Shown piece by piece: positions 7,846-10,113 of a DNA stretch of 16,446 nucleotides. Source of the DNA: a virus (lineage: Duplodnaviria; Heunggongvirae; Uroviricota; Caudoviricetes). The notes beneath the pieces were generated by a model. That model was not told the DNA's origin, did no database searches, and saw only the letters and a list, made by a program, of their open reading frames with translations. The stretch lies in IMG/VR virus record IMGVR_UViG_2737471859_000001; one strand, written 5' to 3'. Position numbers and translations under genes: made by a program. Within the stretch, counting starts at the first letter, position 1. Each line of letters opens with the position of its first letter.

Positions 7846-8106
7846 ATGTTCCGTTGTCCGCTTTGTGGCGCATCTGCCCGTATCCGCACCAGTCGCCCGG
7901 AAAATGATTCAAACACCGTGCGGCAAAAGTATTACCAGTGTAACAACCTGGAATGCGGCGTATGCTTCTCAACACTGGAAGCTTTCCATAAATTCACATC
8001 GAAACACGCCTCCGGCGTTCACTCATCAGAAGGTATCCCGTGGCATGATCTGCCAGCTTCACACAGGGGAAACAATCAGATGAGTTTGCCTTTACCTCAG
8101 AATTAA
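7846..8106 (+). CDS. ogr: Ogr/Delta-family zinc-finger late transcription activator
   Basis: MFRCPLCG...RTSR...YYQCNNLEC matches the P2 Ogr C4 zinc-finger pattern; aagggagg RBS; 86 aa versus 72 aa for P2 Ogr. Confidence 0.85.
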   Translation: MFRCPLCGASARIRTSRPENDSNTVRQKYYQCNNLECGVCFSTLEAFHKFTSKHASGVHSSEGIPWHDLPASHRGNNQMSLPLPQN

Positions 8107-8297
8107 CAGGCAGAATTGCCGGAGTAACAAAAAAGCGATAGATTACGCGCGGGTGCCTTTCGGCTGATGGTCGGAGGGAATACCCGAAGGCCAGATGTGG
8201 AAAGGCCCCGGAAAACATTTCTGTTTAACCGAGGCCCTAACATATCTACCTTAAGCAAGTGATAGGTTAGCGCCTCTCCAACAAAGGAGCAAGCGCT

Positions 8298-8438
8298 ATG
8301 TCGCAAAAATCGCTTACAGCCATCACATTCTGCGTGACGGTAATCCTCATCATCTGGATGCTGCACGGTTCGCTGTGCGAAATACGGATGAGCTTCTGGG
8401 GAGCGGAGTTTGCGGCGTTCTTACAGTGTAAGCAGTAA
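8298..8438 (+). CDS. Hok/Gef-family-like small membrane toxin (type I toxin candidate)
   Basis: 46-aa ORF MSQKSLTAITFCVTVILIIWMLHGSLCEIRMSFWGAEFAAFLQCKQ: one TM helix followed by the SLCE...E.AAFL.C pattern seen in HokA/HokB-like proteins; aaggag SD 8 nt upstream; GC hairpins downstream. Confidence 0.55.
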   Translation: MSQKSLTAITFCVTVILIIWMLHGSLCEIRMSFWGAEFAAFLQCKQ

Positions 8439-8573: not shown

Positions 8574-8870
8574 ATGAGTGAAATGGTATTTTGTCGCGGA
8601 TGCGGCAAGGAAATACATAAAGATGCCACATCCTGCCCCAATTGTGGAGCACCTCAAAGAACAGCAAGTTCAAAAAGCAGAATGACAGCCGCACTACTGG
8701 CTTTCTTTTTAGGTGGTCTTGGTGCACACAAATTTTATTTAGGTAAAGTGGGGCAAGGATTCCTTTACCTTATTTTTTGCTGGACATTCATTCCGGCAAT
8801 CGTGGCATTTATTGAGTTTTTTATCTATCTATGCACCTCTGATGAAGACTTTGCCCGCAAATATGGCTAA
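8574..8870 (+). CDS. Zinc-ribbon + TM2-domain small membrane protein
   Basis: 98-aa ORF: N-terminal CxxC-x15-CxxC (CRGCGK...CPNCG), then two hydrophobic helices around an HKFYLG motif (TM2 signature DRFYLG); AT-rich relative to neighbours; followed by a clean intrinsic terminator. Confidence 0.75.
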   Translation: MSEMVFCRGCGKEIHKDATSCPNCGAPQRTASSKSRMTAALLAFFLGGLGAHKFYLGKVGQGFLYLIFCWTFIPAIVAFIEFFIYLCTSDEDFARKYG

Positions 8871-8896
8871 TGCCTAGTGGGCGAATCAGAATGACA

Positions 8897-8930
8897 AACC
8901 CGCAGCGTAAAAACTGCGGGTTTTCTTTTT
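8897..8930 (+). terminator. Rho-independent terminator after the TM2 gene
   Basis: aacccgcag-(loop)-ctgcgggtt followed by ttttcttttt. Confidence 0.65.
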
Positions 8931-8980
8931 GTCACCCTCACAAATGAGGGTAACACCACTCATAAGTAATAGGCATAACA

Positions 8981-9018
8981 GATCGATGCAATAAATCCGA
9001 TCGATAAAAACGATCGAT
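8981..9018. repeat. Three direct GATCGAT motifs (each with a GATC Dam site and an ATCGAT palindrome) in the com-like promoter region
   Basis: GATCGAT at 8981-8987, 8999-9005 and 9012-9018; a TATCAT -10-like hexamer at 9023-9028. Confidence 0.8.
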
Positions 9019-9062
9019 TTGTTATCATATCAGCAGCAGTAACCACACAAGAGGTGCCGCAA

Positions 9063-9260
9063 ATGACGCAAAATGTACGATGCAAAAATTGCAACAAACT
9101 ACTTGCCCGCGCCTCATTTCACTACATTGAAATAAAATGTCCGCGCTGCAAAACACTTAACAAGATAACGAGAGCCATCGAGCACCCCACACACATGAGG
9201 AGTTATGACCGTGGGGATCGCAATCCAGCACCAACCAGCACATACACCGGAACACACTAA
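9063..9260 (+). CDS. com: Mu Com-like zinc-finger protein (putative translational activator)
   Basis: MTQNVRCKNCNKLL..IEIKCPRCK..EHPT closely matches Mu Com as remembered; gagg SD 8 nt upstream of ATG 9063 (the ORF track starts at an upstream GTG, 9054); 3' end overlaps the methyltransferase ORF. Confidence 0.8.
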   Translation: MTQNVRCKNCNKLLARASFHYIEIKCPRCKTLNKITRAIEHPTHMRSYDRGDRNPAPTSTYTGTH

Positions 9261-10011
9261 GGTTTATCAGACTGACAATGCCACGCTCTGTCGTGGGAAT
9301 GCGCTGGAAATATTGCCGCTGATTGAGCCAGAAAGCATTGATGCCTTAATCACTGACCCACCTTACAGTTCGGGGGCGACACACAAGGCCGGACGCACCA
9401 ACCAGGGCAGCCATGCAAAATATCTGAACGGCGAGAACCTTCACCGCTTTGATGGGTTCGCGGGTGAAAACATGGACGCCCGTTCGTGGGCTTACTGGAC
9501 ACAATTATGGATGGCACAGGCACACCGCGCAGTCAGGCCGGGCGGTTATGCCCTGGTATTTACTGACTGGCGACAACTACCAGCTTTAACCGATGCGTTT
9601 CAGGCCAGTGGCTTTACATGGCGCGGCATCATTGCGTGGAACAAGGGGAGGGGGTCACGAACACCACATACCGGGTATTTCCGGCATCAGTGCGAATACA
9701 TTGTCTGGGGCAGCAAAGGCCATTTAGATAAATCGCCTTCGGGGCCGTTCGACGGCTGCATGACGTTCCCGGTTATCCCGTCAAAGAAAATGCACCCGAC
9801 CGGAAAACCAGAAGAACTAATGGCAGAGCTGGTCAGAACTGCGAATAGTGGCGGAACAGTCCTTGATCCTTTTATGGGGTCAGGAACAACGGGTGTGGCT
9901 GCACTGAAAGCAGGGCGAAAATTTATTGGTATAGAAACCAGTGATCATTATTTTGAGGTAGCAGCGCAGCGGCTTCGGGGGACTATTACCACAACCATTT
10001 CGACTACATAA
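9205..10011 (+). CDS. DNA methyltransferase, N6-adenine/N4-cytosine beta-class (DPPY ... FxGSGTT order); probably N6-adenine
   Basis: ITDPPYSSG (motif IV) precedes DPFMGSGTTGVAALKAGRKFIGIE (motif I), as in CcrM/PvuII-type enzymes. Start codon uncertain: ATG 9205 has a short SD spacing and overlaps com by 56 nt. No restriction endonuclease gene nearby. Confidence 0.85.
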   Translation: MTVGIAIQHQPAHTPEHTKVYQTDNATLCRGNALEILPLIEPESIDALITDPPYSSGATHKAGRTNQGSHAKYLNGENLHRFDGFAGENMDARSWAYWTQLWMAQAHRAVRPGGYALVFTDWRQLPALTDAFQASGFTWRGIIAWNKGRGSRTPHTGYFRHQCEYIVWGSKGHLDKSPSGPFDGCMTFPVIPSKKMHPTGKPEELMAELVRTANSGGTVLDPFMGSGTTGVAALKAGRKFIGIETSDHYFEVAAQRLRGTITTTISTT

Positions 10012-10113
10012 GACAAAGCCCGCATTTTTTGCGGGCTTGTCTATCCTTACTGATGTGGACAGTTTGTGGATGTTTATAAGAAATAAGCTAATAGAAACAA
10101 TCTGTTATCTTTA

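Follow-up and report, generated by a model that had tools for sequence, protein, structure and literature searches.

The closest described system is the com-mom region of phage Mu (AF083977 35693-36602). In Mu, com extends from 35768 to 35956 and mom starts at a GUG codon at 35907, the two genes overlapping by 50 nt (35907-35956). The Mu Com protein is an RNA-binding translational activator needed for mom expression, as cited in PMC3299994 and PMC6483171. The mom GUG is held in the stem of a translation-inhibition structure (TIS), and the native Com-binding site of Mu is the 19-mer GAAUGCCUGCGAGCAUCCC (PMC6483171). Nowacka et al. described the target of Com as a bipartite GAG(N)2CC-N2-3-GAG(N)2CC sequence in a short hairpin adjoining the TIS; the SELEX consensus was obtained with the Com protein of Haemophilus sputorum (PMC6483171). 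Upstream, Dam methylation of the three GATC sites of Mu prevents OxyR binding at mom (Sun & Hattman 1996, as cited in PMC7549136).

A com gene followed by a SAM-dependent methyltransferase gene is known from FluMu, Pnm1, H. aegyptius and B3; translational control by Com was proposed for these methyltransferases, hin1523 included (PMC3299994). In FluMu (HI1522.1/HI1523), Pnm1 (NMA1821), Hia5 and B3 (ORF47/48) com lies directly upstream of an adenine methyltransferase, which takes the position of mom (Drozdz et al. 2012, PMC3299994). The Com-linked enzymes Hia5 and Hin1523 were silent in lysogens, even after mitomycin C (PMC3299994). Among P2-like phages, the annotation of Burkholderia phage KS5 has, from 2010 on, listed a Com protein (gp21) overlapping an N4/N6 methylase (gp20) (PMC3091744), and Ralstonia phage RsoM1USA (Peduoviridae) has a similar pair. 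A further point of comparison is the Dam/OxyR switch of agn43 (flu), in which three GATC sites with a spacing of 19/13 lie in an OxyR site.

The window (the whole 16,446-nt stretch of DNA that was analyzed) contains a com gene that overlaps the gene of a SAM-dependent, beta-class DNA methyltransferase (MTase). It shares with Mu the Com zinc finger, a 50-nt overlap of com with an effector gene that here, too, probably starts at GUG, a predicted Com-binding hairpin in the same register, a predicted TIS with a CCCAC/GUGGG stem and the Shine-Dalgarno sequence (SD) in the loop, and three upstream GATC sites with a spacing of 18/13. It differs from Mu in its effector, which in Mu is Mom; in the absence of an approximately 38-bp segment that in Mu contains a T-run, the -10 element TAAGAT and the start site; and in its carrier element, which is a P2-like phage and not transposable. 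The enzymes of the FluMu, Pnm1, Hia5 and B3 group, by contrast, have motif I before DPPY (about residue 194), form a separate cluster and are not beta-class, and several of their genes lie 3' of com without overlap. KS5 and RsoM1USA resemble the window in being P2-like and in the overlap of Com with a PF01555 beta-class MTase (41% identical to that of the window). Their operons are located among tail genes, whereas that of the window adjoins att; the overlap in KS5 is 23 nt, and the GATC triad was not seen in the upstream sequences read from either phage. The agn43 switch is close in sequence to the regions upstream of com; its sites begin close to the first nucleotide of the annotated IsrC/flu 5' transcript and continue downstream, and it is without a Com or TIS layer.

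Genomic setting of the operon

The window is E. coli chromosomal DNA with the right end of a P2-like prophage. The prophage genes run from the tail genes through gpD, ogr and a hok/sok-like module to a gene with a TM2 domain; the com-MTase pair follows 3' of the latter and is succeeded by the host genes raiA, bamD, rluD, yfiH and clpB (Table 1). The com-MTase operon is cargo at the right end of this prophage. As annotated, with ATG 9205 as the start of the MTase, the two reading frames overlap out of frame by the 56 nt given in the original prediction. In an E. coli locus that is 98.8% identical, RefSeq/PGAP has both genes with identical boundaries, under the product names 'Com family...' and 'DNA-methyltransferase'. 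No endonuclease gene was found in the window or in homologous annotated loci; as had been stated earlier, no restriction partner lies nearby, the neighborhood consisting of ogr, hok/sok, the TM2 gene and host genes. In Rfam no family spans the com junction, the sole match being sok at 8151-8308, below the gathering score.

Table 1. Features of the com-MTase operon and its prophage neighborhood, in window coordinates.
Feature	Position	Strand	Remarks
ogr	7846-8106		
hok/sok-like module	8151-8438		
TM2-domain/zinc-ribbon membrane protein gene	8574-8870		own terminator at 8896-8923
Predicted OxyR-binding region with three Dam sites	8978-9014	.	GATC 8981-8984, 8999-9002, 9012-9015
Sigma-70-like promoter match (weak)	9001-9028	+	TCGATA-16 nt-TATCAT with TG extension; overlaps GATC #2 and #3
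com, Com-family CCCC zinc-finger protein	9063-9260	+	ATG start, 65 aa; SD AGAGGTG at 9050-9056
Predicted Com-binding RNA motif	9170-9186	+	GAGAGCC-AUC-GAGCACC; inside the com ORF, codons 36-42
Predicted TIS-homologue hairpin	9185-9216	+	outer stem CCCCAC/GUGGGG, inner stem CAUGA/UUAUG, loop GGAG
SD of the MTase gene	9197-9202	+	GAGGAG; 8 nt before GUG 9211, 2 nt before ATG 9205
Beta-class (DPPY...FxGxG) amino-DNA MTase	9211-10011	+	266 aa from the probable start GUG 9211; annotated as 268 aa from ATG 9205
G+C-rich hairpin, possibly terminator	10016-10038	.	AAGCCCGC-N7-GCGGGCTT; directly after the MTase stop

The Com protein

The reading frame at 9063-9260, which had been taken for a Com homologue, is by profile match and alignment a bona fide Com. 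It matches PF10122 (Zn_ribbon_Com) in Pfam with E=1e-11 and 44.5 bits (curated cut-off 22.9), and is 59.5% identical to Mu Com over 41 aa (tblastn) and 63.6% identical to the Com of a Mu-like phage. Cysteines 7, 10, 26 and 29 are invariant across the 24 homologues aligned, and the tail is variable; the zinc-ribbon cysteines of Mu Com are at 6, 9, 26 and 29. NCBIfam and PADLOC gave no match for Com or the TM2 protein. Solved structures were rejected as relatives of Com, the hits being chance zinc-ribbon matches to eS27 only. Residues E40-H41-P42-T43 of Com are encoded by GAGCACCCCACA.

Methyltransferase class and start codon

The assignment of the downstream gene to the beta-class DPPY methyltransferases was upheld: the protein matches PF01555 (N6_N4_Mtase) with E=2.5e-33 and 116 bits (cut-off 26.7), and DPPY at residue 51 followed by FMGSG at 223 gives the beta-class motif order (IV - TRD - I). 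Its nearest solved relatives are the DpnA-type and CcrM adenine MTases, and also MboIIA. The protein is probably an N6-adenine enzyme; an m6A target is favored by the DPPY motif and by similarity searches, in which adenine enzymes (E=1e-20) score better than N4-C enzymes (E=2e-12). Values of dN/dS between 0.07 and 0.13 indicate purifying selection. PADLOC models label the protein Type II MTase-like. It is not matched by Mom (PF25680), and it lies outside Hia5/Hin1523, from which it is separated by BLAST cluster and by motif order. The non-specific activity of the Hia5/Hin1523-type enzymes is not transferable to the MTase of the window. M.EcoGII, which is beta-class, was rejected as the identity of the protein on length (349 aa vs 266 aa).

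The true start of the MTase is probably GUG 9211 and not the annotated ATG 9205, with which it is in frame; com and the MTase gene would then overlap by 50 nt, as in Mu. The equivalent GUG is the called start in the P2-like prophage L088, the Salmonella Mu-like prophage L085 and the Mu-like phage L004, and L088 has no ATG alternative. The position of GAGGAG in the window likewise matches the GGAG-N7-GUG of Mu. The original prediction had described the SD of the MTase as weak; GAGGAG is strong in sequence, and is predicted to be masked by structure, being caught partly paired and partly in the apical loop of the hairpin at 9185-9216.

Homology of the cassette with Mu

The window was aligned with Mu, the Mu-like phage L004, the Salmonella Mu-like prophage L085, the Citrobacter locus L007 and the P2-like prophage L088. 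Nucleotide homology begins approximately 85 bp 5' of com and continues without a break through com as far as GTGGGGA, past which the sequences diverge into Mom (L085), C5-cytosine MTases (L004 and L007) and beta-class MTases (the window and L088). Divergence sets in right after GTGGGGA, and the enzyme has therefore been swapped just after the start codon. Judged from this alignment, the control elements of the window are homologous to those of Mu, not merely analogous. The likeness to Mu that had been noticed earlier was thus correct and was understated, the upstream Dam/OxyR GATC triad being conserved as well.

Predicted Com target and start-masking hairpin

The sequence at 9170-9186 fits the SELEX consensus exactly and is the single match in the 16.4-kb window, where 0.02 were expected. 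The motif lines up in register with the 19-mer of Mu and agrees with it at 14 of 19 positions. The predicted hairpin lies immediately 3' of this motif, C9185-C9186 being common to the motif and to the 5' arm of the hairpin. A start-masking hairpin had been suggested for the region around 9180-9230; the one now predicted at 9185-9216 is the homologue of the Mu TIS, with a predicted dG of -14.3 kcal/mol, and in the partition function the probability of being unpaired is 0.0 for both ATG 9205 and GUG 9211. The fold z-score of the 81-nt region is -2.2.

A CCCAC/GUGGG hairpin is predicted in all 11 of the 11 enterobacterial com loci, irrespective of the downstream enzyme. The core stem does not vary among these 11 loci, and covariation in the Com hairpin and TIS is accordingly not significant: in 108 of 500 shuffles the score was as high as the one observed. 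A single pair, between alignment columns 16 and 47, shows a compensatory change, from C-G to U-A. The case for the structure is therefore its homology to the TIS of Mu, which has been probed experimentally. When occupation of the Com site was modeled crudely as a hard single-strand constraint, the MFE changed from -22.6 to -12.5 kcal/mol and the GUG was not clearly freed, re-pairing downstream.

Related arrangements are predicted more widely. Hairpins that sequester the SD or start, with the second Com half-site as the 5' arm, are predicted in KS5, whose junction RNA differs in sequence from that of the window, and in loci L013 and L051; analogous sequestering pairing can be read in the junction sequences of L082 and L062. 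A bipartite or half Com motif precedes the downstream start in most of the Com loci surveyed. The 'EHPT' sequence that is conserved in many Com proteins, and that corresponds to E40-T43 in the Com of the window, probably reflects this kind of constraint on the com RNA.

Upstream region

The three GATC sites upstream of com are spaced by 18 and 13 bp, identical to the spacing upstream of Mu com, and 30 of 41 aligned positions of this region are identical to Mu (counted by eye; the alignment marks the same columns). The OxyR consensus ATAGnTnnnAnCTAT-N7-ATAGnTnnnAnCTAT is matched at 15 of 20 positions in the window, compared with 13 in Mu and 14 in agn43, against a background maximum of 9.5 +/- 1.1 in random 123-nt windows. 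Control of the operon by OxyR and Dam would be consistent with these matches. The sequences upstream of com in L007 and L085 are almost identical to the agn43 switch.

A promoter belonging to the operon itself is argued for by the terminator of the TM2 gene, which lies upstream of com. The sigma-70-like match at 9001-9028 is the only one between 8100 and 10200; one match was found where 2.9 were expected in shuffles, and the promoter call is weak, its consensus match being no better than chance. The C-dependent late promoter of Mu combines a poor -35 with a T-run and the -10 TAAGAT; the approximately 38-bp segment with its -10 and start region is absent from the window, L004, L007 and L085. 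The dyad TTAT-N6-ATAA, which we take to be the binding site of the Mu C activator, is also absent upstream of com in the window and in L004, L007 and L085. A P2 Ogr-type dyad, TGT-N12-ACA, is absent upstream of com; its two matches in the window, where 4.2 were expected, both lie in coding sequence.

Distribution of the operon and survey of Com loci

Of 5426 complete E. coli genomes, 172 carry the operon (8975-10011) at an identity of at least 94%, and in each of them the pair is annotated as Com plus DNA methyltransferase; the isolated phage Chuche has it as well. The com and MTase reading frames are intact in all 172 carriers and in the free phage. Chuche is the only E. coli phage matching the MTase at more than 80% identity; one further record falls in the 60-80% band.

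The survey covered 80 Com loci, with one genome per species, and 63 distinct downstream genes were classified. D12-class adenine methyltransferases (PF02086) account for 31 of the 63, followed by the Hia5/Hin1523 type (7), beta-class PF01555 enzymes (6), Mom (5) and C5 methyltransferases (3), and the remaining 11 are other or unknown genes, some of them behind probably spurious zinc ribbons. A methyltransferase thus follows com in 47 of 63 loci and Mom in 5, together 52 of 63: methyltransferases are the majority partner of com genes and Mom is the minority partner. The com locus of H. sputorum (L082 in the survey) adjoins a Hia5-type methyltransferase.

The arrangement of the window is real, yet already known and common. 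The novelty that had been assumed for the pairing of Com with a SAM-dependent MTase does not hold, as it has been published for Mu-like prophages and a P2-like phage (PMC3299994, PMC3091744), stands in RefSeq and is the majority arrangement.

Proposed mechanism and alternatives

With a probability of roughly three in four, the locus is a Mu-type com-mom regulatory cassette in which a beta-class SAM-dependent MTase takes the place of Mom from just behind the start codon, and which is carried as cargo of a P2-like prophage. The promoter region would hold its three Dam sites within an OxyR-type site, and OxyR would shut off transcription when the GATC sites are not fully methylated. On the bicistronic mRNA Com would be translated while GUG 9211 and the SD of the MTase remain locked in the predicted hairpin of -14 kcal/mol. 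Judging from Mu and from the SELEX-defined target, Com would then bind the GAGAGCC-AUC-GAGCACC hairpin and open the inhibitory one, so that ribosomes can initiate. By analogy with Mu, translation of the MTase would in this way depend on Com. The orphan MTase would methylate phage DNA, and incidentally host DNA, and the progeny would be protected from restriction in the next host; this anti-restriction step is modeled on Mom and on the Com-linked enzymes Hia5 and Hin1523. The mom-style gating of a SAM-dependent orphan MTase put forward in the original prediction is thereby supported in silico by the Com RNA motif, the hairpin and an overlap equal to that of Mu.

The upstream region would also suit a phase-variable epigenetic module of the agn43 type, in which a constitutive promoter and the GATC/OxyR sites set a heritable ON or OFF state in lysogens, and a sub-population of lysogens expresses Com and the MTase and differs in its methylome. 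The GATC spacing (18/13 vs 19/13), the near identity of the L007 and L085 upstream sequences to the agn43 switch and an OxyR match exceeding that of agn43 all fit such a module, as do the overlap of the promoter-like hexamers with GATC #2 and #3 and the lack of a Mu C or P2 Ogr site upstream of com. We nevertheless regard it as unlikely: the corresponding module of Mu does no more than place a Dam check on a late promoter that needs an activator, the promoter call in the window is weak, the additional Com/TIS lock suggests rare and late expression, and the Com-linked Hia5 and Hin1523 stayed silent in lysogens even with mitomycin C (PMC3299994).

At the RNA level, ribosomes translating com might themselves unwind 9185-9216 and re-initiate at the MTase start, leaving the Com protein dispensable or otherwise employed, for example as a DNA-binding transcription factor. 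Such plain translational coupling is frequent among overlapping genes; the com frame covers all of the hairpin and stops 50 nt beyond GUG 9211, and RefSeq uses the name 'Com family DNA-binding transcriptional regulator'. Mu has the same geometry, yet its mom expression depends on the Com protein, as cited in PMC3299994 and PMC6483171, and coupling alone would not need a Com RNA motif that is conserved across enzyme classes and expected 0.02 times by chance; coupling is accordingly given even less credence than phase variation. Least probable of all, and by our estimate very improbable, is that the MTase is a relic without activity, or that it belongs, as the modification component, to a restriction-modification or defense system with a distant partner. 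The PADLOC label Type II MTase-like would suit such an origin, and many prophage methyltransferases are inactive in lysogens (PMC5778455). Against it stand the missing endonuclease in the window and in homologous annotated loci, the low dN/dS, the reading frames kept intact in 172 genomes and a free phage, and the linkage to Com, which is typical of orphan modification genes of phages.

Under the preferred reading, a Com-gated cassette of Mu type, the MTase may be silent in methylome surveys of lysogens, like M.EcoGII, Hia5 and Hin1523, and the gating would explain that silence. The Com gate sits mostly on SAM methyltransferases of four classes, with the swap point right after the start codon, and is an example of modular control for potentially toxic genes. 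The conserved Dam/OxyR triad without the C-dependent promoter of Mu raises the question of phase-variable expression in lysogens; if that reading were true, a phase-variable methylome encoded by a prophage, combined with a Com-dependent translational threshold, would be present in about 3% of E. coli strains. In its general form this reading would make the com cassette a portable gate, which phages splice to the start codons of at least five unrelated families of DNA-modification enzymes. The practical value is modest: the probable corrected start at GUG 9211 and the coordinates of the predicted Com site and hairpin are useful for expressing and assaying a widespread prophage MTase of E. coli.

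The 3' end of the operon

The hairpin that directly follows the MTase stop was flagged on the minus strand and is kept 3' of the MTase gene in phage Chuche, L005 and L088. A divergent C-terminus of the MTase was considered as a mark of attR and rejected; the terminator-like hairpin is common to the free phage, and the difference consists of a 15-nt insertion.

Translation start and Com protein

The annotated ATG start of the methyltransferase is probably wrong, since the GUG of GUGGGG is the homologous start in Mu mom, in the Salmonella Mu-like prophage (L085), in a Mu-like phage (L004) and in a second P2-like prophage (L088); its equivalent in the window, GUG 9211, is the probable start instead. 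With this codon the overlap with com would be 50 nt, equal to that of com and mom in Mu. The coordinates of the features are summarized in the table.

The C-terminal tail of Com proteins is variable apart from an EHPT motif that is conserved in many of them (alignment A2). The stretch encoding EHPT in the window also supplies the second Com half-site and the inhibitory hairpin's 5' arm, and conservation of the motif in the protein is probably a by-product of constraint on the RNA. In RefSeq, the PGAP product name at the 98.8% identical E. coli locus (L001 9564-9761) is 'Com family DNA-binding transcriptional regulator'. This name is misleading, as the characterised member of the family is an RNA-binding translational activator.

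Features of the com-methyltransferase region and neighbouring prophage cargo
Feature	Window position	Details
hok/sok-type type I toxin-antitoxin module	8151-8438	prophage cargo, flanked by ogr and the TM2 gene
Rfam sok match	8151-8308	E=4.6e-9, under the gathering score
Hok-family ORF	8298-8438	46 aa; matches the HokA model of NCBIfam with 35.8 bits (E=6e-9), far under the curated cut-off of 89
Protein with N-terminal zinc ribbon and TM2 membrane domain	8574-8870	98 aa; PF05154, E=5.5e-19
Terminator of the TM2 gene	8896-8923	
Palindrome	8931-8954	GTCACCCTCA-CAAA-TGAGGGTAAC; conserved; after the TM2 terminator, ahead of the GATC triad
EHPT-encoding stretch	9180-9191	GAGCACCCCACA
Annotated and probable methyltransferase starts	9205-9213	ATG 9205, 2 nt past the SD; GUG 9211, 8 nt past the SD
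Methyltransferase C-terminal tail	9975-10000	RGTITTTISTT

Upstream regulatory region

The palindrome, a possible operator or RNA hairpin, is kept in L088 and in two further loci, L005 and L089; the L005 version carries a compensatory change from CCCTCA/TGAGGG to TCCTCA/TGAGGA. The phase-variation switch in the agn43/flu regulatory region of E. coli K-12 (L092 218-253), with a GATC spacing of 19/13, is almost identical in sequence to the region upstream of com in the Mu-like prophages L007 and L085 (ATCgatcGTTTATATCgatcGATAAG versus ATCgatcGTTTTTATCgatcGATAAG). This near-identity suggests that the two regions have one mobile Dam/OxyR module in common. A short deletion (ACAAATCAATTTG) has removed the entire GATC/OxyR cluster from a natural variant of the operon in Escherichia albertii (L089 1-120), and this variant is a ready-made control for the Dam/OxyR layer.

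Enzymes behind the com cassette

The same com cassette precedes a C5-cytosine methyltransferase (PF00145) in the Mu-like phage in LC727895 (L004 2498-3707) and in Citrobacter braakii (L007 3001-4207), with an identical spacing of 41 nt from the Com site to the GUG; Com gating, as read from these arrangements, is thus not limited to adenine-modifying enzymes. In two Neisseria loci (L014 421-1418 and L036 2992-3971) a Com homologue is followed by an ORF of approximately 305 aa that matched no Pfam family at 1e-5 and in which neither DPPY nor FxGxG was found. This ORF could represent an additional, uncharacterised family of enzymes under Com gating, or its frame could be mis-called.

Methyltransferase 3' end and neighbouring cargo

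An insertion of 15 nt, together with local divergence shortly before the stop codon, makes the methyltransferase tail in the window different from that of the isolated phage Chuche, L005 and L088 (approximately TAIEP). A hairpin 3' of the stop is common to all four. The TM2 protein has no counterpart in PADLOC, and both phage Chuche and L088 lack its gene.
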